From contig CAYMTV010000001.1 in assembly GCA_964393525.1 (NCBI GenBank), positions 82,178 through 144,691 on the forward strand: a stretch of 62,514 nt of DNA, given 5' to 3'. The notes under the pieces are model-generated. The model did not search any database and was not told where the DNA came from. It saw only the letters and a list, made by a program, of their open reading frames with translations. Below, one piece after another: positions 1,784 to 21,053 of this stretch. Source of the DNA: an uncultured Gammaproteobacteria bacterium. Its GTDB lineage: Bacteria; Patescibacteriota; Microgenomatia; Daviesbacterales; UBA10151. Each line of letters opens with the position of its first letter. The first letter of the stretch is position 1. The position numbers and the translations under genes are program-made.

Positions 1784-2895
1784 AACAAGATAAAATCAGA
1801 GTTTTGGTAATATCTCCATTTTTTTATCCTCATATTGGGGGCAGTCAACGGTATATGGAGGAAATATATTCAACTTTGGTTAAAAACTATAAAGGTATTC
1901 GAGTTGATGTCCTTTGTTACAACACTGATATAGCAAAAATAAAAGAAGAGTATAAGGATTTAAATATTTACAGGGTGCCTTGTTACAGTATTTTACCCGG
2001 CCAATTTGCACTTCCCAACCCGGTCTATTTGTTTAAATTCTTATGGAACAGAAAATATAATCTGATTCACTGTTCAACCAGGTTCTTTGACTCATCCTGG
2101 TGGACTCCGTTATATGCAAAAGTTACCGGAGCAAAAATTTTTCTTACTGACCACTGTGGGGATTACCCAAAGCATAGAAGTCTTTTAATTTCTGCAATTG
2201 CCAAGATTATTGATAAAGTTACCTCTTTAATTTTCCTTAAAATGTATGACAAAGTTTTTTCAACCAATAAACATACAGAAAATTTTCTGCAAAATGAATT
2301 TGGGATAAAATCTAAAGTCATATATGGAGGGGCAAAAATTTCCGGAAAAAACTTTAAAAAGAAAATACAGGTATTATTTGTCGGAAGAATGATCGATTCC
2401 AAAGGGCCAAAATTACTTTTCAAAATTGCAAAAAAATTTAAGAATTTAAAATTCATTTTTGTAGGTCCTGGAAATTTGGTCCGAGACTTTCAGGAGGAAG
2501 CGGGAAAATTAAAGATCAAAAATGTAAAGATTTTAGGCCCGATTTCTCATGCGGAAGTTTTAACATTGATGTCCAGATCCCTAATTCTGGTTCACCCATC
2601 TTATCACAGTGAGGGTTTTCCTAATGTCTTAACGGAGGCCGGAGCAAGAAAAATGGTAGTTATTGCAACTGATGTTGGGGGAACAAGGGAGATTATTCTC
2701 AACAATAAAACCGGCATTTTGGTAAAGCCAAAGGATGAAAAAGCTTTAGAAAATGCTTTGAAAAAGCTTATGAAGAACAGAAAACTCAGTAAGAAGTTAG
2801 CAGAAAATCTGTACAAACATGTAACAAAAAACTTCCGTTGGGAAAAGTCGGCTAGGAGGCTTTATCAAGAATTAATTAACTTAAAAAGCGCCTGA
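1780..2895 (+). CDS. GT4 (group 1) glycosyltransferase
   Basis: PHIGGSQRY N-terminus, LFVGRMIDSKG, and the EGFPNVLTEA (EX7E) motif. Confidence 0.9.
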   Translation: MKQDKIRVLVISPFFYPHIGGSQRYMEEIYSTLVKNYKGIRVDVLCYNTDIAKIKEEYKDLNIYRVPCYSILPGQFALPNPVYLFKFLWNRKYNLIHCSTRFFDSSWWTPLYAKVTGAKIFLTDHCGDYPKHRSLLISAIAKIIDKVTSLIFLKMYDKVFSTNKHTENFLQNEFGIKSKVIYGGAKISGKNFKKKIQVLFVGRMIDSKGPKLLFKIAKKFKNLKFIFVGPGNLVRDFQEEAGKLKIKNVKILGPISHAEVLTLMSRSLILVHPSYHSEGFPNVLTEAGARKMVVIATDVGGTREIILNNKTGILVKPKDEKALENALKKLMKNRKLSKKLAENLYKHVTKNFRWEKSARRLYQELINLKSA

Positions 2896-3529
2896 CATTT
2901 AGCACTGGTAAATCTCCTCTGTCTTCCGGATGTTGCGGCCCGACTCTAAAGCGGTGATCCCTCTGGTGTATTGGTCTGTCAAACTCAAGTCTTAGACCAA
3001 AGCTAGCACGGAATCTGGGTAATATTACTCCAGAGTTGCCCTTGTCTTCAGCCATAATCTCCACCATTTCGCCATCTCTAAAAATGTGATTACCATCTGA
3101 ATCAAGCAGTTGGATTCGGGTATTAGGCATACTTCTGATCCAAAGTCCTGGTCTGTTTTCGTCTCCCTGTTGGATATCATCAACAAATTCTGGGTTGGTT
3201 CTCATAAAAAACCTAAAGCTATTTATATCATCTTCAGTTTGGGCGAACATTTCACCAACGTTACCCGCATCCCAATAGTGTAAACTTTGTTTTCTAACTA
3301 ATTTCCATTCCAAGTATCTTGTCCAAGGTTCACCTTTGTAAGTTTTAGCCAAAAACCAAATGTTTGGGTGATCAAAGTAGGCCTCTTGAAAATGGAGAGT
3401 CGGTATACTAGCGGCATCGACAGTTCTAGGTACAGTTGCATCAGCAAGGCCTAGTCCTGCTCCTACCAACCCCTTTAAAAAGGTTCTTCTGTCGAGTCCG
3501 CGTTCTGAGAGTGGTACTGGTGCCAACAT
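2876..3529 (-). CDS. Hypothetical exported protein with twin-arginine-like signal
   Basis: 217-aa ORF; DRRTFLKGLVGAGLGLA...VDA|AS signal; TAGAAT box 7 nt upstream of the ATG. Confidence 0.65.
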   Translation of the reverse strand: MLAPVPLSERGLDRRTFLKGLVGAGLGLADATVPRTVDAASIPTLHFQEAYFDHPNIWFLAKTYKGEPWTRYLEWKLVRKQSLHYWDAGNVGEMFAQTEDDINSFRFFMRTNPEFVDDIQQGDENRPGLWIRSMPNTRIQLLDSDGNHIFRDGEMVEIMAEDKGNSGVILPRFRASFGLRLEFDRPIHQRDHRFRVGPQHPEDRGDLPVLNVRRFLS

Positions 3530-3706
3530 CTTTACAATTCTACTCCAAAATATGTAGGAAAGAAACTTATTTTATGTAAGAAAATCAGGAGCATTTAATG
3601 TGGTTGATTTTCCACTGCTCTCTGGTCCTAAGTTTAACTACTTGGGCAGTAATTTTTTTAAATCATGCGCTGGGAGTTTCACCCAGCGCACAAACTTAAG
3701 AAAATT

Positions 3707-4702
3707 TTATCTTGCATCAAGGATATTTCTATCTCTCATATCATCTGCAGGGCCTTTCCAGAAAAGAACTTCTCTGGTTCCTCCAACTCTTGTTGGGTCA
3801 TCTAATCTAGCTCTTAAAATACGTCGGCCTACTTCCGGGAGTAAAATCATCAGATCTCCCTTAGGGCTTCCGCCTCTTGAGCCGAACGATCTACCCGTAT
3901 CTGCATCCAAAACTTCAAAACTTTCACCAGGGGCAACATCCTTAATATTGACTGCATTTGGCCACTCGGGATTTTGTCCTTTGTTGCCAATTTTGTTGTC
4001 TAAGCCTACGTTAATTCTTCCTTTAACAGGGTCAGTATAAAAGTCCAGTGTACCAACTCCGACACAAACATCGGCTTGATGGACTCCTTCTTCAAACTGA
4101 ACAACAACCTGTCCAAAGTTTCCGTGGCTTTCTAAGAATGCTCCTGTTGAACAATCTGCCCAATAAGTTCCATAGCTATCAACACCACTTCTAGTTTTTA
4201 GATGGAACCAGGCATTTTTAGGAGCTCTTTCTCTATCAAGCTGAATATTTTTAACAGGTCCTTTTGCAGGGTCAAATTCAGTTGGGACAGGCAGAGTTGA
4301 TATCCCGCCTGGTTGGGCGGGTTTAGCCTCTGCGGGTTTAGCTGCTGGTGCTGCTGGAGCCTCAGTTGGTTTAGCTGCTACAGGGGCTGCTGTTGGTCTA
4401 GGAGCCTCTGTTGGTTTGGAAGCAGCAGGTGCCCCTGCAGTTGGTTGTGCTTTTGCTACCGCCGTTCCAACTACACCTTGAAGATCCGGTGTTGAAGTTG
4501 GAAGTGCTTGTGCAGTCGCCATTGCATCTTCTCTTGTTCTAGGTCCGGTTGGTGCGCCAATTCCGCCAATTCCACAAGCTGCTAGCAAAGGCGTCAAAGC
4601 TAAACTACTGCTTAAACGCAGGAAAGTTCTCCTGGACATTTGGTTTCCAGCCATAGAACGATCTCTTTCACTCATAGGTGGCCTATTTGCTCTTCTATCC
4701 AT
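3707..4702 (-). CDS. Hypothetical Tat-type lipoprotein with Pro/Ala/Thr-rich linker
   Basis: SRRTFLRL...LLAA|CG lipobox; repeated KPTEAP/PTAAP linker. An SD-like GAGGGGGTGA lies 10 nt before the ATG at 4702 (the track start 4726 is TTG). Confidence 0.7.
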   Translation of the reverse strand: MDRRANRPPMSERDRSMAGNQMSRRTFLRLSSSLALTPLLAACGIGGIGAPTGPRTREDAMATAQALPTSTPDLQGVVGTAVAKAQPTAGAPAASKPTEAPRPTAAPVAAKPTEAPAAPAAKPAEAKPAQPGGISTLPVPTEFDPAKGPVKNIQLDRERAPKNAWFHLKTRSGVDSYGTYWADCSTGAFLESHGNFGQVVVQFEEGVHQADVCVGVGTLDFYTDPVKGRINVGLDNKIGNKGQNPEWPNAVNIKDVAPGESFEVLDADTGRSFGSRGGSPKGDLMILLPEVGRRILRARLDDPTRVGGTREVLFWKGPADDMRDRNILDAR

Positions 4703-4734
4703 ATGATAAATTTCACCCCCTCTCAATTGTGGGA

Positions 4735-5361
4735 TTAAATTTTAGCTTTTCTTAAAAGGTATAAAGAAGTCAAAAACATCAGGGTTGATCCCGATAAGGT
4801 TAGAGTTACCAGATCAACTCCGGTTACTGGAAGCTGAGTTACAGCTCCCAAGACTTTCTTCTGGATACAGATAACTGCTGTATCTTGGGAGACCAGGCTA
4901 TCTTTTCTGGCTTCAGCAAAATTTGTGACACAAACCCCTGCTTCGGCCCCTCCTGAAACTTTTGCTTTAATATCAAAAGATTTTGTCTCTCCCACCTTAA
5001 GAGAGTCAATTGTAAAGCTTATGGTGCGGGTCCCTTTATCAAAGCTGCCCGGTCCGGAGACAAATTCCAATTGTCCGGGCAGTACATCTTTGACTTGAAT
5101 ATTATTTAAATCTTGCTGACCATTGTTTTTGACCTCTAACCTAAACAAGATTGTGTGTCCTGGAAGGAAGGCAAAATTACTGGAGCTTAAACCGTCAACA
5201 AACTGACCATTTCTTGGGTCTTGCACCAGTTTATTTATGGCAAGCTGTAAATTTGGGCCTGGGACTGTAACAATATAATCTGCAAACGCTAAAGAGGGGT
5301 TTAAAAAGGCCAAGAGGAGTAAAGATAGAATACTAAATACTTTTTTTAAAAAGTTGCTCAT
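4735..5361 (-). CDS. DUF11-like (conserved-repeat Ig-like) surface protein with LPxTG sorting signal
   Basis: Signal peptide; PGHTILFRLEVKNNG...VKDVLPGQLEFVSG (DUF11 pattern); C-terminal LPVTG + hydrophobic segment + RKAK. Confidence 0.8.
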   Translation of the reverse strand: MSNFLKKVFSILSLLLLAFLNPSLAFADYIVTVPGPNLQLAINKLVQDPRNGQFVDGLSSSNFAFLPGHTILFRLEVKNNGQQDLNNIQVKDVLPGQLEFVSGPGSFDKGTRTISFTIDSLKVGETKSFDIKAKVSGGAEAGVCVTNFAEARKDSLVSQDTAVICIQKKVLGAVTQLPVTGVDLVTLTLSGSTLMFLTSLYLLRKAKI

Positions 5362-5539
5362 TTTTATTAAGAATTTTTATTGAGCAGTAAGGCAGATCTA
5401 GAGGTCCTATAAAATAATATATTATTAAAACTATGAAGATTAACCCAACCTATTCTAGATTTAAGATAAATTACTATAACACCTATTAATTGTCAATATA
5501 GTAATATCTTCTATTACAAATCTCTTACAAGGCGAGCTT

Positions 5540-8500
5540 TCAATTTGCAGGCGATGGAGTTGAGGAAGGTGTCTGGGAAGTGGGTAGAGAGGAGGGAATT
5601 GGGTTAATTGAGGATATAGGACTTGGGCTAGAAGGTTGGGGTGTGGGGGATGCGCTTTGAGATGGTGATGGAGTTTGAGAAGGGGTTGGCGAAGGAGATA
5701 TTTGCGGGAGTAGGGCTGGAGTGATTGACGGGAAGGGTGAGGGTGAAGACAACTCAATAATAGGCTTTAAGCTTGGGCTTGGCATTAAAGTTGCTGATGG
5801 GGAAGCTAACTCGGTTGAATCTAAGTTATCAAAATTTAAGGGTTGGCTTTGTAGGGAGGGAATTGATTTGACAATTAAACCTAGGTCATTGCACCAAGTT
5901 ATTTGTCCACCTATTACTTTAGCGTTATTATTCCAGGCAGCTTTAAACACTTCTGTATTAGAATTTTGAATGGTTGCATCTTCAAATGACCCTTGGGGAT
6001 CCTGGCAATTCAACTTTTTCCAAAAACCTTCATATCCCGACTTATAAGCCATAACTCCATAAGTCCCTTGATCAATATTATCAAACAAAACCCATCCCTC
6101 TTCTGCACCAAAAGCATTAGCAGAAGTCAAAGTCTGAATTACTGTGTTTCCTGCGGTATCGGTTAACTTTAAGGTGGCGCCGTTTATATAAGTTCCCTTC
6201 CAGGATTTGTTGCTATTAAACTCGGTGATGCGTACTCTTAAACTACCTTTGGTGTTAGATTTTAAGCCTAAATCAGTACACCAGGTTGTCTGGTCGGAAA
6301 CAATAGCAACATTTTCATTCCAAGATGCGGTTAATCCTTCGGTGTTTTGATTGTTTATTGTTGCATTATCAAATGACCCTTGAGGATTTTGGCAATTGAG
6401 CTTCTTCCAGACTCCAACGTATCCACTTTTGTATGCCATAATTCCATATGTCCCGGCGGGAACATCATCAAATTGCGCCCACCCCTCCTCACTACCAAAA
6501 GCATTTGTGCTTGTCAGTGTTTTAATAACTGTACTTCCGGATGCATCGGTTAACTTAACTTTGACATCATTAATATATTTATTGATCCAGCTCCGGTCAA
6601 CCCCAAATTCGGCGACTCTTACTTTCAGGTTTCCGGTCTGTGGAGCATCGGGAGCAAGCCCCAAATCAAAGCAGTAGGTAGTTTTTCCTCCTTGTACGGC
6701 AACATTATTATTCCAGGCTGCAGTTAGCTCATCGGTGTTTTGGTTTTTAATAGTTGCATTAGTAGTATCTTCTATACTGCATGAAGTTTTTTTCAAAAAT
6801 CCTTTAAAACCTGCTTTATGTGCTATCAACCCAAACGTGCCTTCCGGCGTATTTTCAAAAAGCGCCCAGCCGTCTTCGTTCCCAAAAGCTTTGCCTGAGG
6901 TTAATGTTTTTGAAACAGTATTACCGGTGATATCTGTAAGTTTAACTGTAGCTCCGTTTATGAATCCATTTACGGTATATGATGATCCGTTTGTTGTAAC
7001 ATTTAATATTCTGACTCTTAAATTTCCGGTGGTTTTTGAGGCAAGTCCCAAATCCGTGCACCAGGTGGTCTGATTGGAAACCACTGTTATATTATTATTC
7101 CAAGCCGCTTTGAAGCCTTCTGTATTGGAGTTTTGAATGGTTGCATTATCAAATGACCCTTGAGGATTTTGGCAATTGAGCTTCTTCCAGACTCCAACAG
7201 AGCCTGATTTATAAGCCAGAACTCCATAAGTTCCGGGACTTAAGCCGTTAAACTCCACCCAGCCATCTTCACCATCGGATCTTTTGGTAGTTGATTTACT
7301 GACAAAAACAGTATTTCCCGAGGTATCGGTTAGTTTAACTATGACATCATTAATATATTTATTGAGCCAATTCTGGTTGCTGCCAAATTCAGCTACCCGA
7401 AATCTTAAATTTCCGGTACCCAGCCCGGTAGATTTAAATTTAGCTGTGTAGGTTGTTGTAGCTTGGGGAGTAGTGATCTGGTGAGTTTTGGTTCTATCAT
7501 CAGACCAGGAATCAAACTCAAAGTTTTCGTCAGCTTTAGTTTGTGATGGAGCATCAAGAGTAAACTTAAAACCAACCACTGCCTCCTGGGAGTGCGGTGC
7601 AGTAACTGGCAGTCCATCGATGGTTAACCCTAGGCCTTGGGGATCGGTGTTAAAAGTCAGGGTAACCTTGTTTGGAAAAATCTCTCTACTGTCTACGGTT
7701 TTTAATCCCTGTGAATCGGTAACTGTCAATTCTATTTCATACCAGGTATCGGCAGATTCCTCACCGGTATCCGGTATCTTAAAAGATCCGGATTTAACAT
7801 TATCTATTGGTCCTAAAAAAGGATGGATGTGAGTACCATGATGAAAAAATATTTTCCAGGAGAATGCACTGGTGGGTAGGGTGCCATCCTCCGGGTCAGT
7901 GGCGTTAGCGCTGTAGTTTATGGTTTGTCCGGCGTTATACTTTGCCTGATTTTGCGGCTCAAAAAAATTAATTTGCGGGGCATTATTCCCGGCAAAAATT
8001 TCTAATGAAACGGTTTCACTATTTAGATGTCCATCTGAAACGGTTAACTTAGCTGTAAACTTGCCCTTGGAAGTATATTTATGTGAGGGGTTAGCCTCCT
8101 TTGATGTTGAGCCATCCCCAAAGTCCCAGGAGTAGGAAAGCTGCGAGTTTTCCGGGTCGTTCGAGCCTTCGGATGAAAACTGAACGCTTAAGGGTATATT
8201 GCCCGAGGTTGGATTGGCAGAGATTTTGGCAACCGGCGGCAAATTGCCGGAGGCAAAATTTATTTTTAAAAGGGCTCCGGGGTAAATAGTTAAAAAGTAA
8301 AGGCTGCCGTCTGTCCCTTGGGCCATTTGGACTACAGTTCCGGCTGCCTCATCAAACATCTCTTCATGATCTAAGACCCCATCCTCATGGATTTCCATGC
8401 TTTTAATAAACCCCATCGCAAAATCCCCAAAAAAGTAACTTCCCGGAAGGTCTGGTGGGAACTTGTCGCCACTGTATTGAAACCCTGAAACTACCGCTGC

Positions 8501-9349
8501 TGATTGTCCGTTATGAGGGTAAGCATGGACCGGATTAATATACTGGCAGCTGCCGCATGATCCTTCAAAAAAGGGATAGCCGTAATTTCCGCCTTTGATA
8601 ATAATATTTAATTCCTCCCAGGAAAAATCCCCGACATCCCCTAAAATAATTTGCCCATCTAATAAAAAATTAAACCTGAAAGGGTTTCTTAGGCCATATG
8701 CCCAAATAGCGCCTTCTTTGCCGGATTGCCCGGCAAAAGGATTATCTTGCGGGATTGTGCCATCTTTGTTGATTCTTAAAAGCTTTCCGTGAATGTTTGA
8801 TAAATCCTGCGAGTTGGCTCTTGTGTCATTATTGCCAATTGAAATCCAAAGCTTTCCATCCGGTCCGAAACGTAAACCTCCTGACTGGTGGATTAGATTT
8901 AGGGGTTTGGTAGACTTAAGAAGTATTTTTTCACTTGAGGGATCTGCTGTGTCGCCATTTGTCGTAAACCTGGAAACTCTAAGTTCAAGCGGGTTTTTGT
9001 TAACATAAGAGATATAAACAAACTTGTTGCTGGAAAACTGCGGATCGACAACAACACCCAATAAACCCCGCTCTCCCTCGCCATCAACCGATAAACTCAA
9101 GAAGGCATTAGGCAGTATCGAACCATTTTTGATAACTTTTACATTACCAAACTGTTCCGTGACAAGGATTCTTCCATCAGGGATAAATGCAAAATCGGTT
9201 GGATTATTAAATCCCCCGGCAACGGTTGTTTTAGTAAAGTTGGGTGGCAGAGCAAATACTGGAGAATTATTTGGAAGAAAAGTTGAAAAAAGTAACACCA
9301 AAAGTGCAGCAGGCAATAGTTTTATCAGCGATTCCAAAATTTTTTTCAT
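5540..9349 (-). CDS. Secreted PQQ-dependent glucose/sorbosone dehydrogenase-family protein with PKD domain, four ~130-aa repeats and a Pro/Ser/Thr tail
   Basis: HQSGGLRFGPDGKL, GKLLRIN.DG, IWAYGLRNPFR and EELN...GGNYGYP motifs; PKD motif YSWDFGDGS; internal repeats. Confidence 0.85.
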   Translation of the reverse strand: MKKILESLIKLLPAALLVLLFSTFLPNNSPVFALPPNFTKTTVAGGFNNPTDFAFIPDGRILVTEQFGNVKVIKNGSILPNAFLSLSVDGEGERGLLGVVVDPQFSSNKFVYISYVNKNPLELRVSRFTTNGDTADPSSEKILLKSTKPLNLIHQSGGLRFGPDGKLWISIGNNDTRANSQDLSNIHGKLLRINKDGTIPQDNPFAGQSGKEGAIWAYGLRNPFRFNFLLDGQIILGDVGDFSWEELNIIIKGGNYGYPFFEGSCGSCQYINPVHAYPHNGQSAAVVSGFQYSGDKFPPDLPGSYFFGDFAMGFIKSMEIHEDGVLDHEEMFDEAAGTVVQMAQGTDGSLYFLTIYPGALLKINFASGNLPPVAKISANPTSGNIPLSVQFSSEGSNDPENSQLSYSWDFGDGSTSKEANPSHKYTSKGKFTAKLTVSDGHLNSETVSLEIFAGNNAPQINFFEPQNQAKYNAGQTINYSANATDPEDGTLPTSAFSWKIFFHHGTHIHPFLGPIDNVKSGSFKIPDTGEESADTWYEIELTVTDSQGLKTVDSREIFPNKVTLTFNTDPQGLGLTIDGLPVTAPHSQEAVVGFKFTLDAPSQTKADENFEFDSWSDDRTKTHQITTPQATTTYTAKFKSTGLGTGNLRFRVAEFGSNQNWLNKYINDVIVKLTDTSGNTVFVSKSTTKRSDGEDGWVEFNGLSPGTYGVLAYKSGSVGVWKKLNCQNPQGSFDNATIQNSNTEGFKAAWNNNITVVSNQTTWCTDLGLASKTTGNLRVRILNVTTNGSSYTVNGFINGATVKLTDITGNTVSKTLTSGKAFGNEDGWALFENTPEGTFGLIAHKAGFKGFLKKTSCSIEDTTNATIKNQNTDELTAAWNNNVAVQGGKTTYCFDLGLAPDAPQTGNLKVRVAEFGVDRSWINKYINDVKVKLTDASGSTVIKTLTSTNAFGSEEGWAQFDDVPAGTYGIMAYKSGYVGVWKKLNCQNPQGSFDNATINNQNTEGLTASWNENVAIVSDQTTWCTDLGLKSNTKGSLRVRITEFNSNKSWKGTYINGATLKLTDTAGNTVIQTLTSANAFGAEEGWVLFDNIDQGTYGVMAYKSGYEGFWKKLNCQDPQGSFEDATIQNSNTEVFKAAWNNNAKVIGGQITWCNDLGLIVKSIPSLQSQPLNFDNLDSTELASPSATLMPSPSLKPIIELSSPSPFPSITPALLPQISPSPTPSQTPSPSQSASPTPQPSSPSPISSINPIPSSLPTSQTPSSTPSPAN
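5876..7417 (-). repeat. Four tandem intragenic protein repeats (units start at 7417, 7030, 6637, 6250)
   Basis: Each unit reads (T/K)G(N/S)L(R/K).R...KLTD.(S/T)G...GW..F....GT(Y/F)G..A.K.G...C...N.NT....AAWN.N......(W/Y)C.DLGL; spacings 387/393/387 nt. Confidence 0.9.
6360..7198. repeat. 59-bp identical direct repeat (6360-6418 and 7140-7198)
   Basis: GTTGCATTATCAAATGACCCTTGAGGATTTTGGCAATTGAGCTTCTTCCAGACTCCAAC occurs twice, 780 nt apart (repeat units 1 and 3). Confidence 0.9.
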
Positions 9350-9395
9350 CGAATTTCATAGGCAGAGGAAGGTGGTGCTCAAAAGCAGCCGTATT

Positions 9396-9486
9396 ATACT
9401 CGCAGAATGAGACGAAGTCTCTTCTCCGAATAGAGCTTCGCTCATACTCGCAGAATAAATTCTGCTCATAATTCTAAAGCAGAATT
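9396..9486. repeat. 35-nt hairpin flanked by 13-bp direct repeats, followed by an 8-bp inverted repeat
   Basis: ATACTCGCAGAAT at 9396-9408 and 9444-9456 flanks GAGACGAAGTCTCT...AGAGCTTCGCTC. AATTCTGC (9458-9465) and GCAGAATT (9479-9486) form the inverted repeat. Confidence 0.8.
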
Positions 9487-9512
9487 ATATAGCTATGGGT
9501 CAAGTAAGGCAA
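9484..9512 (-). promoter_or_regulatory. Sigma70-type promoter for the dehydrogenase gene
   Basis: Minus strand TTGCCT-17 nt-TATAAT. Confidence 0.7.
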
Positions 9513-9520
9513 GTTATAGG

Positions 9521-10279
9521 TTAGTTTTCTAAGACTTTTTCTTCCTGAGCAAAAACTATTAGCCTCTGCCAATTGGTGCCAGGCGGCCAGCAGGTGGATA
9601 AAATTAAATCGGCATTTGCCTGTCTGATTGTTTCCAGATCCTGCGGTCCAATAATTTTTTTATCGGTTATTTTATAATAGTAAGTTTTCCCCCTGAAGTT
9701 AATTTTTATCTCATCTGAAACCTCAGTATCTTTCAAGGCATAAAATTTGGCATTCCATTGTTCGACGTTAAAAAGAGTATCCGTCGAATGGGCAAATAAG
9801 AAAACCGAACCGCCCTCGCCGGGGTAATAGGAGCCATTAGCATGAGCAATGCCTTTTTTTAGTTCTTCTTTATAAATGGCTTCATTTGAGGCGTCAACAT
9901 TGGGGATAATATTTGAGGTAAGGTTGATACTGGGGATGGATAAAAAAAACTCGTTACTTTTAAATTCTTCCCCGTTTGTTAATACGAAATTTTCCGAATA
10001 TGTGTTTGGATCTTTCTTGAGATTGAGATTAAATTGGGGCTGTCTTTGGGGTTTGACTATCTCATAAATTGCCGAGGCTATTGGGAGAGTAGTTGTAGTT
10101 ATACTAAAAACTGAGATAAATAAAAGACCTATGGCAATAGATTGCAGTAAATAATTTTTTCTTTGGTAGGGTTTGGGTTCTACTGTAAGATAAAGAACTC
10201 CCTGGCAAATTTTTTGCTCGTTGCTGTTAAATAAGTTAACTGCGCACTTTGGTAAGTAATATTTAACCGTCCTGCTCAT
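9521..10279 (-). CDS. Sortase
   Basis: N-terminal TM; His-Cys-Arg triad in PGEGGSVFLFAHS, LILSTCWP, WQRLIVFA. Confidence 0.92.
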   Translation of the reverse strand: MSRTVKYYLPKCAVNLFNSNEQKICQGVLYLTVEPKPYQRKNYLLQSIAIGLLFISVFSITTTTLPIASAIYEIVKPQRQPQFNLNLKKDPNTYSENFVLTNGEEFKSNEFFLSIPSINLTSNIIPNVDASNEAIYKEELKKGIAHANGSYYPGEGGSVFLFAHSTDTLFNVEQWNAKFYALKDTEVSDEIKINFRGKTYYYKITDKKIIGPQDLETIRQANADLILSTCWPPGTNWQRLIVFAQEEKVLEN

Positions 10280-10366
10280 AAAAATTTTTAAGGCAGAAAG
10301 GTTTAAGTTTGCAGATTATATCACAGGCCTTTAATTTTTATCTTAGAAATTTTAAAATGATAATAT

Positions 10367-10729
10367 ATGGCCAAATCTTTTAATATTCTTTCATTTAAAC
10401 ACGCTTTAACCGGAATCTGGACAGCGCTAACTGAGCAACCCAATTTTAAATTTCACCTTATTGCCACCGCCCTAGCACTTTTTTTAGCTTTGTATTTTCA
10501 GGTTTCCGGATTTGAATGGTTGGTTTTGATACTCACCATTGGTTTGGTAATAAGTTTGGAACTTACCAATACTGCTATTGAAGAAATTGTTAATTCTTTT
10601 ACCGAGGAGGTTCATCCGGCAGCTAAAAAAGCAAAAGATGTAGCAGCGGGCGCTGTACTAATTATCTCTATTACGGCTTTAATAATTGGCATATACATTT
10701 TCCTGCCCTATATATTAAACCTTATTTAG
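10367..10729 (+). CDS. dgkA: Diacylglycerol kinase family protein (DgkA / undecaprenol kinase)
   Basis: 120 aa, 3 TM; ELTNTAIEEIVN and AKKAKDVAAGAVLI motifs. Confidence 0.9.
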   Translation: MAKSFNILSFKHALTGIWTALTEQPNFKFHLIATALALFLALYFQVSGFEWLVLILTIGLVISLELTNTAIEEIVNSFTEEVHPAAKKAKDVAAGAVLIISITALIIGIYIFLPYILNLI

Positions 10730-12302
10730 GTATTCTTTTCTGCAGTTTGAACGAGCCGATTTCTTTTTCCCAGCCGATATCGGTAAAGTAGCCCTCAACT
10801 CTTAAATACTCATCAATAAAATATTGAGGAACACCATATAAAGGTTCAATAATTAAGTATCTTTTTTTTGGTAAGGCGTCTTGAGCGTCAACTACTTTTA
10901 AATTTCCCGGATAGCCGGGAGCATTTTTGTTACCCCATATGGGCAAAAACCCATATTTATTTTTTCCATACCATTCAAATAAATAACTCCAGGTAGTATT
11001 AATATCCAAAGGGATAGAAATTGCTTTTATGGCAAAGTCTTCACCTTTTGCATCCGCATAGATCATGTCTATAATTTTCAGCTCATCTGACAAAAGCATT
11101 CTTTCCTGCGGGGTAATAACCGGCATTGTTCCGCTGGAGTTTTTGCTTAAAATAAAATTTAAATTTGCCGATATGATTAGGGCCAAAATTAAGTAAGATA
11201 TTTTTCTAAAAAAACCGGGTCTGTCAAAAAGGAATCCTAAAATTAGAGCTGTCAGGATAATTAAAACACTCGATACTCCAACATCATAAAAATAAAATGA
11301 CTCACCGACTGTTCTTCCACCGGCGATTAAATAAAAAAAGAATAGCCCAAAAAACCAGATGCTTAAAAATAAAATTGGTTTTCTAAAATCTTTAAATTTT
11401 TTGGCAATGATGATAACTGCAATTAGTAATGTTAACCCGGGGATGATCCCGGGAAAAAATTGTCCGCTTAAATTAAATGAAATCATTTTTAAAACTGTAT
11501 TCAGAAAATGTGAGACTATAGCAATTAAATCCTTATTTGTTTGCAAACCAAAGATGCTCAAAAGACCATTTACCCCGCGGAAGTTAAATTTCAGTTCGGC
11601 AATTATGAAAGATGCTATTGAAAATAAAAATCCAAACAGCGCAAATATCCAGTACTTAAAATGAACTTTCTTAAGTTCCTTAAAATTTACTGCTAAGATT
11701 ATTAAAACCGGGACTAAAAGGTAAGTTAAGGTTAACTCAAGCTGCATTGAAGCGCCTAAAGCAACAGCTGCAAGTGTAAGCCCCAATCCCTTTTTTTGAA
11801 AAACAGTTAGAGCCAGTCCCAAAAAAGTTAACATTACGGATAAGCTTGCCAAAGAAGGGTTTCCCATGTATAAACTAAACTGGCTTTGTTCAAAAGAAAT
11901 TGCAAAAAATAAAGCTGAGAGAAGACCAATTTTTTCTACCAAAGACCCGTCAAAACTTTTTGAGGAAAAGATTGCTTTGACGGTAAAGTAGATTAAAATT
12001 ACCCCAAAGACATTAAAGATCCTTAGGAAAGCAGACAATAAAAAAGGATTTCCCGAAGTTATAAAGTATATTGGTGTTATGATGTAGTAATATAAAACCC
12101 CGTGATAAAGACCTACTTCCCCATAAGAAGTTGATGGTCCGATAAGCTGCGGGTCTCCCGAGATAATTTTTTTGGCTATGAAAGCATCCCTGGCCTGATC
12201 AAAGCCAAAATAAGTATTGGTTGGAAAATATAAAAATCTGATTATTAATCCCAAAAGAAAGATTAATATTAATACTTTATGTTTTGAGATAATTTGTCGC
12301 AC
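10722..12302 (-). CDS. ArnT/PMT-like GT-C membrane glycosyltransferase
   Basis: Polytopic; FDQARD...LIGPSTS...YYY loop motif; GTG start. Confidence 0.75.
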   Translation of the reverse strand: MRQIISKHKVLILIFLLGLIIRFLYFPTNTYFGFDQARDAFIAKKIISGDPQLIGPSTSYGEVGLYHGVLYYYIITPIYFITSGNPFLLSAFLRIFNVFGVILIYFTVKAIFSSKSFDGSLVEKIGLLSALFFAISFEQSQFSLYMGNPSLASLSVMLTFLGLALTVFQKKGLGLTLAAVALGASMQLELTLTYLLVPVLIILAVNFKELKKVHFKYWIFALFGFLFSIASFIIAELKFNFRGVNGLLSIFGLQTNKDLIAIVSHFLNTVLKMISFNLSGQFFPGIIPGLTLLIAVIIIAKKFKDFRKPILFLSIWFFGLFFFYLIAGGRTVGESFYFYDVGVSSVLIILTALILGFLFDRPGFFRKISYLILALIISANLNFILSKNSSGTMPVITPQERMLLSDELKIIDMIYADAKGEDFAIKAISIPLDINTTWSYLFEWYGKNKYGFLPIWGNKNAPGYPGNLKVVDAQDALPKKRYLIIEPLYGVPQYFIDEYLRVEGYFTDIGWEKEIGSFKLQKRIPK

Positions 12303-12388: not shown

Positions 12389-13057
12389 ATGATACCGATA
12401 TCCGATTCGCATCCGGCCGGAAAATTTCCTTTTTGGGTGATAGTTATCATTGTTTTAAATGTTTACTTTTTTTATCTGGAACTGACCGCACCCAGCACGG
12501 ATTTTTTCATCAGCCAGTATGCACTAATACCTGCAGCAGTAGATTTTTCTAATTTGTCATCACTGACTCCTTTTATCACCAGCCAGTTTCTGCATGGGGG
12601 ATTTTTGCATATTATTTCCAACATGCTTTTTTTGTGGGTATTTGGTGATAATGTTGAGGCCAAAATGGGAAAATTAATATTCCCCTTTATTTATCTACTT
12701 TCCGGAGTAGTCGGCGGATTTGCTCAATACATTTTTATCCCGGACTCAACTATACCAATGCTTGGTGCATCAGGCGCGGTGGCTGGAGTTCTTGGGGCTT
12801 ACTTTGCCTGGTTTCCTCATCACAGCGTTAAAACCTTGGTGCCTGTTTTTGGTTTCTTGACTGTGGTAAATATCCCTGCCTCTTTTATGCTATTTTACTG
12901 GTTTATCACACAGCTATTTTCCGGGGCATTTTCTTTAGGGATTGATCAGGGGGCGATGGGCGGGGTGGCGTACTTTGCCCATATTGGCGGGTTTGCAACC
13001 GGTTTCTTTTTTGCCAAAATTATTTCTCCGACAAAGCGCTTGGGAGAACATGCTTGA
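12389..13057 (+). CDS. Rhomboid intramembrane serine protease
   Basis: FLHGGFLHIISNM, GASGAVAG (catalytic Ser), AYFAHIGGF (catalytic His). Confidence 0.93.
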   Translation: MIPISDSHPAGKFPFWVIVIIVLNVYFFYLELTAPSTDFFISQYALIPAAVDFSNLSSLTPFITSQFLHGGFLHIISNMLFLWVFGDNVEAKMGKLIFPFIYLLSGVVGGFAQYIFIPDSTIPMLGASGAVAGVLGAYFAWFPHHSVKTLVPVFGFLTVVNIPASFMLFYWFITQLFSGAFSLGIDQGAMGGVAYFAHIGGFATGFFFAKIISPTKRLGEHA

Positions 13058-14256: not shown

Positions 14257-16734
14257 GTGAAAGCTATCTATTTACTAGTATTTCTGCTTTTTTTAGGCTT
14301 TCCATTTATTTTTCTTACCAACCCCGCTCAAGCAGAATATCTTTATTTTCAAGATGAGTTTAATGAAAACAGAAGTCCTAATACTTTAGAAAGTTCAAAA
14401 TGGATAGTATATCCTAATAATATTTTAGGATTTACTACAATTTCTGAGGCAAATGGAATTTTATCTACCACTCAACAAAACAATACCAATCAGTATCCTT
14501 TAGTTGTTTCTAAATCTCAAGTTTTACCGGCAGGAGATTTTTCGGCAGAAATAAAATTCCAATATACAAAAGTCACCCACTGGGGAACAGGGATTGCTTT
14601 AGTTGAGCAACTTCCCAAAAACGGGGGAGGGTTTAATGCACTGCTTAATATTCAAGTCTGGCAGGATAAATCTGTTGGCCCTAATATGAGGGTGCAGTTT
14701 GATGGTCCAATTGTTTATAGCACAAATATTAATACAAATTTACACACCCTAAGGGTGGACAGAACAGGCAAAAAATATTTGATTTTTCTGGACAATCAGC
14801 TAATTTTTACATCCCCTGATACAACTGAACAGGTTAAATATATCTGGATGGGAAACCCAGATAAGCTTAATTTTTTAGTCCCTGAATGGACCACGTTTAA
14901 TGTAGATTACATCAGGGTTAAATCATTTGCTCCTGAGCCATTTTTAGAGTTGCCTTGGGAATATGAGAAAAAAGGCATAAGTTTTAATGAAGCCGCCTTA
15001 GCAATAAGCTCATATTTTGATCATGAGTATCCTTTGTTAAGTACAGGATTAAATGAAGAAAGTGATAAAAGTGGAAATGTAATTTATTTCAGAGGTCCTC
15101 CACAAACTAATAAATCATATTCATCTCACGATGGCTATGATTATGCAAGATTAGCAAGAGCAAATCTTAAAGATCCGGTTTTAGCTGCTGCTGCAGGAGA
15201 GGCTACATATAAAAATGATTGCACAGCTTGTGGTAATGCTATTTTAATTGATCACAAAAACGGTTATCAGACCAGATATTATCACCTTTATGATGAGGGA
15301 TTAATTACAAAAACACCGGGGGAGAAAGTCAATGTTGCTGCGGGAGAGCAAATTGGTTTGATTGGTGCAACCGGAAATGTTTTGCCCGAAGGCGATGCCG
15401 GCGCACACATCCATTTTATGGTAGTTCAAGACAAAGACGGGGACGGGGACTTTAATAACAATATCCCGGATGGGCTGGTTGACCCGTTTGGCTGGCAAAG
15501 TAAAGAAGATGATCCCTGGGAAAAATATAACTTTTTCTATCTTAATAAAAGTAGGATCGGCAATAAAAGCTACTACATTTGGAAGAAAAAACTGGATAAT
15601 TTGGATGCTAATTTGGATTCAAACGGCGGGATATTTGAAACAGGCAGATACAAGTTTAACTTTCCGCAAGGCGCTACAAATTGGGATTTAAGACTTGAGG
15701 TAAGTTCCGCACCGATTAGTGTATTTGGCAATTTTTCCTCTATCGGATCAACTATTATTTCTACAGCCAAAGATTCCCTGGGTAATTTAGTTCAACAATT
15801 TGGCGCATTGTACGAACTGACGGTTGATTTTAAAGGCTTTGATCTATCAAGTTATAAAAAGGAAACTATTTCTATTTATTCAAGCGAGGATGGGATAAAT
15901 TGGAACAAGGAAGAGACAGCAGTAGATTTAGAAGAAAATATTGCAAAAGCCCAAATTAATCATATGACCTATTTTGGCCTAATGGCAGAGAGGATTGATA
16001 ACCTAGCTCCTGCAACAAACGTGGACTTAGAGGGCCAGATGGGGGATCCGAATTGGTTTAGGTCTGATGTAAAAGTAAATTTAAATCCACAAGATAATGA
16101 GGGGGGACATGGGGTTGATTACACATTTTACAAACTTAATGAGGAAGACTGGAAGTTATATACTGCACCACTAATATTTACAAATGAAGGAAATTATAAG
16201 ATCCAATATTATTCGGTTGACAAAGATGACAATATAGAAGAAGTAAAAACTAAAGAGTTTAATATTGATAAGACTATTCCCGAGGCAAAAGTATTTGTTG
16301 ACCCGCAAGTTTATGATTTGAAAGTAATCGGGATAGATCAAAATTTAAAAACTGTTGAAAAGGATGACTTAAGTTATATTATCTCTGATTTTTCAGGAAA
16401 CCAGCTTAAATTAGAGGTTGAGGAAAAAGATAAGGAAAAAAAGGATGAGTTTAAAATTAACTCTATGCAATACAACAATGAACTGGTAGTTGAACAACCG
16501 GATAATAAGTTAAAAGTAGAGTATAAAAGTAAAGATAATAAGTTTCATCCAAAAAAGCAGGAATTTGAAATGGAAAAGGAGGTAAAAATGGAAATTAAAT
16601 ATGAGATGGATAAAAATTCAAGCGAAATAACCACTAAGGTAAATGGAGAAAAAAAGATCAGACAGGTTAAAGAAGGGCTAGTAATCTTGCAGTTGGTAAC
16701 AAATAAGGGTAAGCTGGAATATAGTTATGAATAA
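14257..16734 (+). CDS. Secreted multidomain protein: lectin-like N-domain, canonical M23 peptidase, ZU5/GPS-like beta domain, Ig-like C-domain
   Basis: Signal peptide; HDGYD...YYHL...GATG...HIHF in canonical order; DKDGDGD motif; WFRSDV...IQYYSVDK domain. Confidence 0.75.
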   Translation: MKAIYLLVFLLFLGFPFIFLTNPAQAEYLYFQDEFNENRSPNTLESSKWIVYPNNILGFTTISEANGILSTTQQNNTNQYPLVVSKSQVLPAGDFSAEIKFQYTKVTHWGTGIALVEQLPKNGGGFNALLNIQVWQDKSVGPNMRVQFDGPIVYSTNINTNLHTLRVDRTGKKYLIFLDNQLIFTSPDTTEQVKYIWMGNPDKLNFLVPEWTTFNVDYIRVKSFAPEPFLELPWEYEKKGISFNEAALAISSYFDHEYPLLSTGLNEESDKSGNVIYFRGPPQTNKSYSSHDGYDYARLARANLKDPVLAAAAGEATYKNDCTACGNAILIDHKNGYQTRYYHLYDEGLITKTPGEKVNVAAGEQIGLIGATGNVLPEGDAGAHIHFMVVQDKDGDGDFNNNIPDGLVDPFGWQSKEDDPWEKYNFFYLNKSRIGNKSYYIWKKKLDNLDANLDSNGGIFETGRYKFNFPQGATNWDLRLEVSSAPISVFGNFSSIGSTIISTAKDSLGNLVQQFGALYELTVDFKGFDLSSYKKETISIYSSEDGINWNKEETAVDLEENIAKAQINHMTYFGLMAERIDNLAPATNVDLEGQMGDPNWFRSDVKVNLNPQDNEGGHGVDYTFYKLNEEDWKLYTAPLIFTNEGNYKIQYYSVDKDDNIEEVKTKEFNIDKTIPEAKVFVDPQVYDLKVIGIDQNLKTVEKDDLSYIISDFSGNQLKLEVEEKDKEKKDEFKINSMQYNNELVVEQPDNKLKVEYKSKDNKFHPKKQEFEMEKEVKMEIKYEMDKNSSEITTKVNGEKKIRQVKEGLVILQLVTNKGKLEYSYE

Positions 16735-18275: not shown

Positions 18276-19466
18276 CTAAGGTATGTGCCAGTAGAGGGTA
18301 ACGACCCCATTTTTGTGATCTACAAAAACTCCTTTTCCAACAGTGTTTGTTAAGTAGCAAGCCCTGCTATCTTGGGTGGCATAAGCAGTCCCATCCTCTG
18401 CGGCGTAAATGGAAGAGCCGTAGTGATCTGCAATATCCAACCCCGAGTGTGTCCCCAAAAAGTAAACCTGGCCAAAACGGGTTGTTATATCTCCATTATT
18501 ACAAGTTCCTCCTTGAGAACAGTCATTGCTGGAATAGCTTGAGGTGGGTTTGGAAAATCTGCCTGAATCAATATAGGGTTTGGGGTCAACCTTATTACTT
18601 GATCCGACAATAATCCCATTTTCAACATGAGCCGGAGTCATGACCTCAAAATGCAGATGCGGCCCGGTTGAGCAACCGGTATTCCCAACCGAGGCAATCC
18701 GCTCGCCTTTTTTAACATCCCCCAATTTTACTCCTTTACTCCCTAAAGCTCTGGCAATGGAGTCTGCATCCGCCCGAAGCCTTGCTAAAATCTCCTGGAA
18801 TTTTGCTTCATTATTTTTAGTAACTGCTAAAAGCTCTTCTTTTTCTTTTTTTTGAGCTTCAAGTTGAATCTCATAAACCTCTAAGTCTTTTTTTAGTTTC
18901 TGCTGTTGGATCTGACGGACTTGTTTATCCTGCTTTTGGTCATTGTAGGTAGTTTTGGTCGCCTGAAGCTGGTATAAAACTTTTTTGTCATTGGCCTGGG
19001 CTACTTGAATATACTTAATTCTCTCCAAAAGATCGGAAAAGCCGTGCGAAGAAAAAATTAAATCTATGGTGGAGTAATTTCCAAATTTATAGGTGCTGAC
19101 AATTCGGTTTAGTAAAACCTCCGAAATTGAATCAACAGAGGCAGAAATTCGGGTGATCCTGCCCGAAAGTTCCTCAATTTGCTTATCTAGTTTGGTGATC
19201 TGGAATTTTGTCTCGTCTATCTTTAACTCGGTTAATTTATTTTGGGTGTCAATATATTTTAGCTGAGAGTTTAGGGTTTTTTCCTGAGCCTGAGTTTGTG
19301 CAAGCTGCTCTTCAACCCGCTTAATCTCTTCCCTTTTTTCCCTAAGCGCTACGTCAAGCTCGTCTTCGGATTGAGCAAAACTTATCTTTGGAAAAGTAAG
19401 TACAGCAATTAATAAAGTTGTAAGTATTAGTCTAAACAGGAATTTAGGGAAGGCGTTTTTGCTCAT
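18276..19466 (-). CDS. Coiled-coil + circularly permuted M23 peptidase (FtsEX-associated murein hydrolase candidate)
   Basis: Signal peptide, long coiled coil, then STGPHLHFEV followed by HSGLD...TLYWH; directly downstream of ftsX. Confidence 0.85.
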   Translation of the reverse strand: MSKNAFPKFLFRLILTTLLIAVLTFPKISFAQSEDELDVALREKREEIKRVEEQLAQTQAQEKTLNSQLKYIDTQNKLTELKIDETKFQITKLDKQIEELSGRITRISASVDSISEVLLNRIVSTYKFGNYSTIDLIFSSHGFSDLLERIKYIQVAQANDKKVLYQLQATKTTYNDQKQDKQVRQIQQQKLKKDLEVYEIQLEAQKKEKEELLAVTKNNEAKFQEILARLRADADSIARALGSKGVKLGDVKKGERIASVGNTGCSTGPHLHFEVMTPAHVENGIIVGSSNKVDPKPYIDSGRFSKPTSSYSSNDCSQGGTCNNGDITTRFGQVYFLGTHSGLDIADHYGSSIYAAEDGTAYATQDSRACYLTNTVGKGVFVDHKNGVVTLYWHIP

Positions 19467-19489
19467 AACTTCAAAGGGTGATTTTGAAT

Positions 19490-20359: not shown

Positions 20360-20366
20360 GAGCAGC

Positions 20367-21053
20367 TTAGTGCAGTTCGTACTTACCTTCAGGTTTGTCT
20401 TTGGTTATTTTCCCATCTCTTATTGCAACCACCCTTTTTTTCAAAGTATTAACAATTTCTACATTATGGGTAGCCATAACTATGGTTGTACCCCAGGAGT
20501 TAATTTCATTTAAAAGCTGGATTACTCCCCAGGAAGTTTGAGGGTCCAAGTCTCCGGTTGGCTCATCTGCCAAAAGTATATCCGGTTTTCCAATCATAGC
20601 CCGGGCAATAGCTGTTCTTTGAGCCTCTCCTCCTGAAAGCTGGTTTGGAAATAAGTTTCTTCTATTCCAAATTTCAAAAAGCTTTAAAATCCTTTCTACT
20701 TCTTTGTGGATTTCCTCATCCGGCAAGTCCCGAACCTCCAGGGCAATGGCAATATTTTCAAAAACCGTTCTATCATCCAAAAGCTTAAAGTCCTGAAAAA
20801 CAAAGCCAACCTTTCTTCTATAAAGCGGGATTTCTTTATTCTTCAGCCTGGTGATGTCTATATCATCAATCAGAATTTTTCCGGATGTTGGCAGGTATTC
20901 TCTGGCAAGAAGCCTAAGAAGAGTGGATTTACCGGCGCCGGAGGGTCCAACCAAAAAAACGAACTCACCGCCTTTAATCTCTAAGTTAATATCTGAGACA
21001 GCGGTAATCGTTGAGCTGAATTTTTTAGAAACGTCATCGAATTTGATAAGCAT
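20367..21053 (-). CDS. ftsE: Cell division ATP-binding protein FtsE
   Basis: GPSGAGKST, VFQDFKLL, LSGGEAQR, LADEPTGDLD; adjacent to ftsX. Confidence 0.93.
   Translation of the reverse strand: MLIKFDDVSKKFSSTITAVSDINLEIKGGEFVFLVGPSGAGKSTLLRLLAREYLPTSGKILIDDIDITRLKNKEIPLYRRKVGFVFQDFKLLDDRTVFENIAIALEVRDLPDEEIHKEVERILKLFEIWNRRNLFPNQLSGGEAQRTAIARAMIGKPDILLADEPTGDLDPQTSWGVIQLLNEINSWGTTIVMATHNVEIVNTLKKRVVAIRDGKITKDKPEGKYELH

Follow-up and report, generated by a model that had tools for sequence, protein, structure and literature searches.

A sortase gene linked to the gene for a single-domain CLIPPER protein, with passenger genes, in a Microgenomates bacterium

Do a sortase gene and a nearby gene for an LPxTG protein form a working pair, and does a giant enzyme encoded between them belong to the same surface system? 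This question is raised by a gene cluster in a 62,514-nucleotide stretch of DNA from an uncultured bacterium (contig CAYMTV010000001.1; the whole stretch is referred to as the window, and all coordinates are its own). The cluster consists of five co-oriented open reading frames (ORFs) on the minus strand (2876-10279), in the order sortase, 1269-residue dehydrogenase, 208-residue CLIPPER protein (CLIPPER is the present Pfam name of DUF11, PF01345), and two twin-arginine proteins. A first-pass annotation had read it as a dedicated surface module in which the small immunoglobulin (Ig)-like CLIPPER protein is wall-anchored or polymerised, and may tether the dehydrogenase; the coordinates were exactly as given there, and the two twin-arginine proteins fall outside the interval that had been assigned to the module (4735-10279). 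Our results point, with moderate confidence, to a linked sortase-substrate pair of a Microgenomates bacterium (candidate phyla radiation, CPR) accompanied by passenger genes, in which a single stabilised Ig-like domain would be covalently anchored to the wall.

The sortase and its candidate substrate

The features of the sortase gene are as follows.

9521..10279, minus strand: sortase, 252 residues (PF04203, 68.1 bits, cut-off 26.6; TIGR01076, 44.8 bits, cut-off 39.35)
10154-10279, minus strand: conserved cytoplasmic N-terminus of ~42 residues (residues 1-42)
10076-10153, minus strand: membrane helix (residues 43-68), followed by a linker
9542-9949, minus strand: catalytic domain (residues 111-246)
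9788-9790, minus strand: His164, in the motif FAHST
9590-9592, minus strand: Cys230, in the motif LSTCW (TLxTC-type)
9563-9565, minus strand: Arg239, in the motif WQRL

Both family scores exceeded the curated cut-offs, the catalytic His, Cys, and Arg residues were present, and all three were invariant across an alignment of 28 sortase homologues. The gene order, the intact catalytic triad, and the anchorless Pro/Ser/Thr tail of the dehydrogenase, all described in the first-pass annotation, were borne out by the ORFs, by this alignment, and by an inspection of the tail and the spacer behind it. Judged by the profile matches, the enzyme belongs to the sortase superfamily and its candidate substrate to the CLIPPER family, and the sortase belongs to no curated class: the window protein scored 45.9 bits with the NCBIfam model for class C (NF033745; cut-off 160), 50.7 and 57.6 bits with those for class D (NF033746 and NF058671; cut-offs 165 and 140), and 31.5 bits with that for class E (NF033747; cut-off 160). 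On these scores, the family lies at much the same distance from the models for classes C, D, and E, and fits none of them; one homologue from Chisholmbacteria (P0041) bears the NCBI name 'class E sortase'. The enzyme resembles class D (Bacillus SrtD) and class E (actinobacterial housekeeping SrtE) sortases in its single N-terminal membrane anchor, and the class D models scored highest, but the scores were far below the 140-165-bit cut-offs, and the motif here is LPxTG instead of LPxTA or LAxTG. The DP(F/W/Y) lid motif was not conserved in the linkers of the five sortases compared, and there is no C-terminal membrane helix, the protein stopping 13 residues past Arg239. The family is marked by the active-site motif TCWPPGT together with its own conserved cytoplasmic N-terminus, in which the segment ahead of the helix has a consensus of roughly PG.I.L(Y/F)D, a variable stretch, and F.G.L. 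No role is known to us for a cytoplasmic domain in an enzyme of this kind.

The candidate substrate has the following features.

4735..5361, minus strand: CLIPPER (DUF11) protein, 208 residues (PF01345, 56.9 bits, cut-off 24.6; TIGR01451, 39.1 bits, cut-off 24)
5281-5361, minus strand: signal peptide (residues 1-27), ending in AFA
4864-5244, minus strand: single Ig-like domain (residues 40-166)
5230-5232, minus strand: Lys44
5086-5088, minus strand: Asp92
4921-4923, minus strand: Asn147
residues Cys144 and Cys165: Cys pair
4819-4833, minus strand: LPVTG (residues 177-181)
4738-4818, minus strand: hydrophobic helix and RKAKI

The C-terminus thus reads LPVTG, VDLVTLTLSGSTLMFLTSLYLL, and RKAKI, which matches the pattern of an LPXTG sorting signal, and is combined with a signal peptide at the N-terminus. 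The earlier statement that a complete sorting signal is confined to the DUF11 protein was upheld by a scan of all 2551 ORFs of the window, in which this protein carried the sole true LPxTG-type signal; two further matches to the regular expression were antisense or short spurious ORFs. Two homologues (P0123 and P0124) are annotated by the Joint Genome Institute (JGI) as LPXTG-motif cell wall-anchored proteins.

An AlphaFold2 model (11 homologues) gave a confident single Ig-like domain, with a predicted local distance difference test (pLDDT) score of 86.9. When this model was searched against the PDB with Foldseek, the top match was 9IFR, a CLIPPER domain (E 4e-6; template modelling (TM) score 0.73). 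By sequence, a single-sequence search of the PDB with the CLIPPER protein gave 0 matches, and a profile search only chance-level ones (best E 0.17). In 9IFR, an isopeptide bond links Lys715 and Asn806 with Asp748 as the catalyst, and confers thermal and protease resistance (PMC12617251). Lys44, Asp92, Asn147, and Cys165 were invariant in the 28 CLIPPER family members, and Cys144 was present in 27 of the 28; the order and spacing of Lys44, Asp92, and Asn147 fit those of Lys715, Asp748, and Asn806, when an insertion of ~15 residues past the first strand is allowed for. The window protein therefore resembles the CLIPPER domains of fibrillar adhesins in fold, Pfam match, and the positions of Lys, Asp, and Asn, and also in a predicted disulfide, which is found in about 30% of CLIPPER domains (PMC12617251). 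On the other hand, CLIPPER domains occur mainly as tandem stalk repeats in long adhesins (PMC12617251), whereas here a stand-alone single domain forms the whole mature protein, beside a sortase gene and in a CPR genome.

Lys44 was the only invariant lysine in the family and is part of the predicted intramolecular triad; Lys91, Lys127, and Lys134 are substituted in several members. The domain and LPVTG are no more than about 10 residues apart, so that the mature product, a compact and doubly cross-linked domain, would sit close to the peptidoglycan. The mature N-terminus varies: in most members (L007, L010, L011, and L013-L030; related loci are numbered with L) it is a Cys-x(2-4)-YGG-x(2-4)-Cys hairpin, and in the subgroup of the window (residues 28-39) both hairpin cysteines are lost and Tyr29 is kept (27 of 28 members). 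Distant single-domain homologues (L016-L018, L020, L022-L025, and L027) end in TP(P/S/A)TG(P/A)E, a helix, and a basic tail, and no sortase gene was found within 10 kb of them; this TPxTG tail may be a variant sorting signal for a sortase encoded elsewhere, or for another system.

Linkage of the two genes in relatives

On the CLIPPER side, 30 distinct loci with CLIPPER homologues were searched with locally built hidden Markov models (HMMs). In 15 distinct related loci besides the window, a sortase and a CLIPPER gene were linked on the same strand, and a sortase of the same family lay upstream in the window, L002/L003, L005, L007-L013, L015, L019, L021, L028, and L030. Since it recurs on the same strand in 15 related loci, the linkage is beyond chance. 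Eight loci had the two genes 8-650 bp apart and two had them 1.2-2.2 kb apart; with a dehydrogenase gene in between, the distance was 2.7-5.5 kb. In L006, the sortase gene is 8.6 kb downstream of the CLIPPER gene. The sorting motifs in the sortase-linked loci were LPVTG, LPKTG, LPRTG, IPKTG, LPPTG, LPQSG, LPVSG, and LPVAG, always followed by the helix and the basic tail, and the motif type tracked the sortase clade, with LPxTG in one and LPV(A/S)G in the other. The neighbour-joining trees of the sortases and of the CLIPPER proteins were broadly congruent. The inspection of synteny in related genomes that the first-pass annotation had called for thus came out positive, the pair being conserved and co-diverging.

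Other LPxTG-like ORFs were rare, only two being found in L001-L027 (about 400 kb of related loci). In L006, an ORF divergent from the CLIPPER gene (9149-9625 of that locus, minus strand) encodes a 158-residue protein with an N-terminal membrane helix, a Pro/Ser/Thr-rich middle, LPQTG, a helix, and a basic tail, and is a candidate for a second small sortase substrate of its genome.

The view from the sortase side was different. A sample of 80 metagenome loci was obtained through the sortase alignment, and the 53 with at least 900 bp downstream were counted: a CLIPPER neighbour was present in eight, another LPxSG candidate in one, and no ORF with a sorting signal within 4 kb in 44. The pairing is a property of one clade within a larger family of mostly stand-alone sortases. 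Of the 'dedicated surface module' proposed earlier, the linkage therefore held and 'dedicated' did not; the data show a sortase linked to its main or only nearby substrate rather than dedicated to it.

The homologues came from Davies-, Gottesman-, Levy-, and Chisholmbacteria and from metagenome-assembled genomes named 'Patescibacteria group'. Many of the record titles of L008-L010, L012, L013, L015, L017-L019, L024, L025, and L027 read 'uncultured Gammaproteobacteria bacterium' in spite of Microgenomates-type loci, which looks like a placeholder or a wrong label. Sortase is nearly ubiquitous in Microgenomates and is one of the protein families that distinguish them within the CPR (PMC6744442), and a complete Microgenomates genome encodes peptidoglycan synthesis and a sortase (PMC7143001).

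The dehydrogenase, the twin-arginine proteins, and the surroundings

Between the sortase and CLIPPER genes (gaps of 171 bp on the sortase side and 178 bp on the CLIPPER side) lies the gene for the large enzyme.

5540..9349, minus strand: secreted protein of the pyrroloquinoline quinone (PQQ)-type glucose/sorbosone dehydrogenase family, 1269 residues (Pfam GSDH, 2.3e-58)
9251-9349, minus strand: cleavable signal peptide (residues 1-33)
8285-9211, minus strand: six-bladed propeller (residues 47-355), with the IHQSGG histidine at residue 154
8027-8245, minus strand: PKD domain (residues 369-441; PKD_4, 2.2e-22)
beyond the PKD domain: further Ig-like and InlB-B-like segments (Pfam SdrD_B, CarboxypepD_reg, and SpaA matches in the protein)
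about 5855-7411, minus strand: four prealbumin-like repeats of ~130 residues, starting at residues 646, 775, 906, and 1035
about 5543-5854, minus strand: Pro/Ser/Thr tail of 105 residues (about residues 1165-1269), 60% Pro/Ser/Thr

The protein scored 198.5 bits with PF07995 (cut-off 25) and contains the catalytic His in the HxGG motif; among solved structures, 3A9G matched at 5.6e-36, with IHQSGG aligned to IHNGG, and 2ISM, 2G8S, and 1C9U also matched. With TIGR03606, it scored 109.9 bits against a cut-off of 434.55. No PQQ synthesis genes were seen among the scanned proteins of the window; the cell would need to obtain PQQ from its surroundings. Neither LPxTG nor a terminal membrane helix was found in the window dehydrogenase, nor any sorting signal in its homologues of L001, L002, L008, L028, and L030. 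A lost or frameshifted anchor was considered and rejected: the 178-bp spacer 3' of the gene contains no continuation, and the five homologues likewise end without an anchor. The dehydrogenase homologues situated between sortase and CLIPPER genes comprise 833-1360 residues; the number of stalk repeats varies, and the Pro/Ser/Thr tail is present in some only.

In the window, L002/L003, L008, L028, and L030, the sortase and CLIPPER genes flank a dehydrogenase gene, and the arrangement in L001, L004, and L029, where the contig is cut, is consistent with the same position. Elsewhere, this slot is empty or holds an oppositely oriented epimerase gene (L005), an unrelated 673-residue ORF (L012), or a 137-residue ORF (L013); most sortase-CLIPPER pairs lack a dehydrogenase. 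Because dehydrogenase-bearing and dehydrogenase-free loci intermingle in the sortase and CLIPPER trees alike, and because the slot has alternative contents, the gene is an old but dispensable resident, an optional passenger, and the CLIPPER protein works without it. The dehydrogenase is probably co-expressed with its neighbours.

The two genes on the other side of the CLIPPER gene encode proteins with twin-arginine (Tat) signals.

3707..4726, minus strand: twin-arginine lipoprotein-like protein, 339 residues (the database gene call starts at nucleotide 4675 and gives 322 residues)
residues 30-35 of the 339-residue protein: SRRTFL (within SRRTFLRL)
Cys51 of the 339-residue protein: lipobox LLAAC
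339-residue protein: Ala/Pro/Thr linker of ~86 residues
3710-4309, minus strand: all-beta C-terminal domain of the 339-residue protein, about 190-200 residues, of a rare family
2876..3529, minus strand: twin-arginine protein without a lipobox, 217 residues, with DRRTFL (within DRRTFLKG) at residues 13-18

The longer ORF begins 8 bp 3' of the CLIPPER gene (59 bp with the database start), and the 3' end of the shorter gene overlaps a convergent GT4 gene by 20 bp. A relation that the first-pass annotation had missed is that the two proteins are paralogues of one rare family: the 217-residue protein corresponds to the C-terminal domain of the 339-residue protein, and an HMM of the latter recruited the group of the former on iteration. 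The 217-residue protein is 58% identical to the product of L001 3533-4213. Both window proteins carry the Tat consensus (S/T-R-R-x-F-L-K) before a hydrophobic region; the Pfam TAT_signal model gave 16.5 bits for the 217-residue protein, below its cut-off of 22.7, and did not match the 339-residue protein. Nearly all family members have an RRxFL-type motif (RRxFL or RRxLL), and many have a lipobox, e.g. LAAC. No TatA or TatC gene was found among the scanned window proteins; TatA and TatC have been reported in Microgenomatia (PMC9166423).

Neither Pfam nor NCBIfam contained a match for the 339-residue protein or its family, and only 13 cluster representatives were found at E<=1e-3 among 1.84 billion proteins. 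This search was made with the C-terminal domain alone, as the Ala/Pro-rich linker swamped a full-length word-index search, which returned the protein itself and one relative. The AlphaFold2 model of the domain was an all-beta jelly-roll (pLDDT 91.1; predicted TM score 0.88), and a fold search of the PDB gave best E values of ~1e-3 and TM scores of 0.25-0.35 (the PAW domain of PNGase, the X domain of ExoP, and several carbohydrate-binding modules). A reading as a carbohydrate-binding module or lectin was not retained; the resemblance is loose, with no convincing counterpart in the PDB. No Cys or His is invariant in the family, and there is thus no sign of a metal or cofactor site. Homologues lie 3' of the CLIPPER gene in the window, L001, L002/L003, L005, L006, L008, L013, and L016, and L031 has a member in the same position beside the convergent GT4 gene. 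Elsewhere, the gene after the CLIPPER gene codes for unrelated secreted proteins; a single dedicated family of downstream partners was rejected, the genes in this position falling into several unrelated groups.

The sequence of the cluster is sound. Independent assemblies of three groundwater metagenome runs yielded contigs over 2367-5404, 4899-6389, and 7169-10322, evenly covered and broken solely within the dehydrogenase repeats; as these contigs bridge the gene junctions at uniform depth, an assembly chimera is excluded. The cluster (2701-10300) has a G+C content of about 41-44%, or about 39-49% when taken in 300-bp windows, with a peak of 52% at 4201-4500, and its flanks about 30-35%, or about 29-35% in such windows. 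A chimera was rejected as the cause of this difference on the same evidence, and it could be due to amino acid composition or to an old transfer; Ala, Pro, Arg, and Gly abound in both Tat-signal proteins.

Judged by its gene content, the window as a whole is an envelope-biogenesis island. In addition to the cluster, it contains genes for a rhomboid protease, M23 peptidases, FtsEX with a PcsB-like protein, rmlABCD, many GT2 genes, and at least nine paralogues of PMT_2/GT-C-type membrane glycosyltransferases. Next to the sortase gene lies a further conserved neighbour, to which we ascribe no part in the mechanism.

10367..10729, plus strand: gene of the prokaryotic diacylglycerol/undecaprenol kinase family (DAGK_prokar; PF01219, 1.2e-34), divergent from the sortase gene

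A DAGK gene occupies the same divergent position beside the sortase in L002, L008, L009, L028, L029, and L030, and the rhomboid protease gene (12389-13057 in the window) is often beside it. Gram-positive members of the DAGK family include undecaprenol kinase, and a link to lipid-carrier recycling is possible. Glycosylation genes are dense at 22598-61342 and are also found at 107-2895 and 10722-12302; this region also holds YfhO-, GT87-, and PTPS_related-type membrane proteins, several GT2 and GT4 genes, and a flippase-like Polysacc_synt gene. Speculatively, O-glycosylation would have plausible targets in the dehydrogenase tail (Pro/Ser/Thr) and in the linker (Ala/Pro/Thr) of the 339-residue protein. 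A block convergent to the CLIPPER and Tat-like genes (107-2895 in the window; also L001, L002, L006, L016, L025, and L031) comprises a GT4, a multi-pass membrane protein of ~600 residues without a family match, a protein of ~250 residues, and a GT2. This GT4-to-GT2 block spans deeply diverged relatives, sortase-free loci included, and conservation of this neighbourhood may reach further back than that of the sortase linkage. An 825-residue secreted protein (14257-16734) contains an M23 peptidase domain at residues 291-392 between large flanks without a family match, and a second M23/PcsB-like protein is encoded with FtsEX at 18276-21053.

Anchored domain, fibre, or docking stub

In the explanation that we favour, the CLIPPER protein would be exported via Sec, and its signal peptide would be cut after AFA. 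The single Ig-like domain would fold and be locked by the Lys44-Asn147 isopeptide bond, with Asp92 as the catalyst, and by the Cys144-Cys165 disulfide, while the C-terminal helix and the RKAKI tail would retain the protein in the membrane. The neighbouring membrane-anchored sortase would then cleave LPVTG between Thr and Gly through Cys230 and transfer the protein to an amine of the peptidoglycan precursor, so that the domain would come to rest immediately on or within the wall, as a small and highly stable module held there covalently. The dehydrogenase would be a Sec-secreted enzyme with a head, stalk, and tail, encoded in a variable slot, and the two Tat-signal proteins, both with the jelly-roll domain of the rare family and one of them a putative lipoprotein on a long Ala/Pro/Thr linker, would share the same surface neighbourhood. 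The domains, motifs, and catalytic residues, the conserved linkage, and the co-divergence are shown by the present data; cleavage, the acceptor in the wall, the isopeptide bond, and contacts of any kind between the CLIPPER protein and the other products are inferred.

Several results weigh against this explanation or narrow it. No NCBIfam class model came near its cut-off with the window sortase or its 28 relatives. The Gram_pos_anchor and LPXTG-anchor HMMs did not report the CLIPPER tail at E<=0.01 (Pfam) or E<=0.1 (NCBIfam), and so the sorting signal is recognised by pattern only. The isopeptide bond is predicted from residue positions. A scan of the cluster for promoters and terminators gave counts at chance level; an operon structure is therefore not established. 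In a search for expression data, the sequence of this uncultured organism occurred in DNA metagenome runs only (groundwater). A strictly dedicated sortase was rejected, and with a CLIPPER neighbour in eight of the 53 sortase-side loci, the sortase is probably a general enzyme. Finally, close relatives have a conserved neighbourhood in common (rhomboid, DAGK, GT4, and the 600-residue membrane protein), which accounts for part of the synteny.

This last point leads to a reading in which the genes share a conserved envelope-biogenesis region and no function, the sortase being a housekeeping enzyme without a special relation to the CLIPPER protein. The whole window is indeed an envelope island, the same four neighbours flank the cluster in many relatives, 44 of the 53 sortase-side loci lack a substrate gene within 4 kb, and the distant TPxTG-tailed homologues have no sortase within 10 kb. 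However, the two genes stay adjacent on the same strand, often within <100 bp, when the surroundings differ (L005, L007, L013, L015, L019, L021, L033, L034, and L102), the motif type co-varies with sortase clade, and the window encodes no sortase-type substrate other than the CLIPPER protein, which together make mere co-residence quite improbable. Taken as a functional pair, the genes might instead encode a sortase-assembled fibre, in which the CLIPPER protein would be a minimal one-domain pilin whose subunits the adjacent sortase would string together head to tail, each bonded through its LPVT carboxyl to an amine on the one that follows. Gram-positive pilus loci (class C sortases with pilins of the SpaA, BcpA, and RrgB types) are likewise laid out with a sortase gene directly upstream of the gene for a small Ig-like LPxTG protein stabilised by an isopeptide bond (here a predicted one); the best matches of the sortase among sequences of solved structures, weak as they were, were class C pilus sortases (8T28, 2.8e-5; also 2XWG, 7D6P, and 5K9A), all 28 members of the sortase family matched the class C model weakly (best E 1.5e-19), the BcpA major pilin was a lower-ranked fold match of the CLIPPER model, and Tyr29, near the mature N-terminus, is kept in 27 of 28 members. 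Nevertheless, the features that define a pilus locus failed here: the sortase scored 46 against 160 bits, class D models did equally well or better, and each locus has one LPxTG gene, for a one-domain substrate, with no tip or base pilin. To our knowledge, no pilin consists of a single domain. Because the lid motif is not conserved, the C-terminal helix is absent, there is a single LPxTG gene, and there is no conserved free lysine, wall anchoring is favoured over polymerisation, and we regard a fibre as very unlikely. Of the two fates named in the first-pass annotation, anchoring was thus strengthened, by a complete and conserved signal, and polymerisation lost ground; its suggestion of looking for a pilin lysine in the CLIPPER protein ended negatively, with Lys44 of the predicted triad as the only invariant one.

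The remaining alternative starts from wall anchoring and adds a function to it: the wall-fixed CLIPPER stub would dock the anchorless dehydrogenase, and perhaps also the Tat-exported jelly-roll proteins. The dehydrogenase is built like surface-displayed proteins, with head, stalk, and tail, yet it and its homologues lack an anchor; at least the window, L002, L008, L028, and L030 retain the order sortase-dehydrogenase-CLIPPER at a protein identity of only about 50-60%, a gene for a secreted protein always follows closely behind the CLIPPER gene, and the slot carries different secreted proteins according to the genome, including the 673-residue ORF in L012. On the other hand, most sortase-CLIPPER pairs have no dehydrogenase, loci with and without it are interleaved in both trees, no feature of the CLIPPER protein was found to track it (both N-terminal subtypes co-occur with the dehydrogenase), and the downstream partners are mutually unrelated in many loci. 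Docking of this kind is unlikely, and the tethering of the enzyme by the CLIPPER protein is unsupported, with nothing that links the dehydrogenase specifically to that protein. A broader form may be imagined, in which the locus would be a Microgenomates cassette of a wall stub plus swappable cargo: an isopeptide- and disulfide-locked stub in the thin CPR wall would dock anchorless secreted proteins encoded at variable positions, the dehydrogenase or other large proteins in the slot and Tat-exported proteins downstream, giving a chain from membrane to wall to surface with a layout like the Isd relay. We consider such a cassette unlikely; in a radical variant, stubs would be joined via an amine other than that of lysine to form a fibre of single domains.

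Of the Gram-positive loci that combine a sortase with its substrate, the closest in layout is the Isd locus of Staphylococcus aureus, where SrtB is encoded beside IsdC, a small one-domain wall-embedded protein, together with a membrane lipoprotein and larger surface proteins. The present locus likewise clusters a sortase with one short protein of a single beta-sandwich and a short linker to the motif, a lipoprotein, and larger surface proteins. However, there is no sequence relation: the domain is CLIPPER and not NEAT, the motif is LPVTG and not NPQTN, the sortase is not of class B, and genes for haem or transport functions are absent. What the two loci share is architecture only.

Wall anchoring of a single stabilised domain by a linked sortase remains the explanation that we prefer. 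The observation of the first-pass annotation was confirmed and its interpretation partly supported: the pair is real, and wall anchoring is likely. A sortase gene beside its own substrate gene is a common Gram-positive arrangement, and the present results extend this classical arrangement to a new phylum-level group without revealing a new mechanism. The eye-catching dehydrogenase was shown to be an optional insert, and a rare family of Tat-signal proteins, with a confident fold and no solved counterpart, was found as a by-product. Docking, if real, would account for the display of changing sets of surface enzymes through a single anchor by bacteria that are genome-reduced and probably epibiotic. 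No description of a sortase substrate in Microgenomates was found in full-text literature searches; the conserved CLIPPER protein, a stand-alone domain with a predicted isopeptide bond, would give the sortase that is widespread in Microgenomates its first concrete candidate substrate, and the two proteins offer a simple, testable pair for an uncultured lineage.

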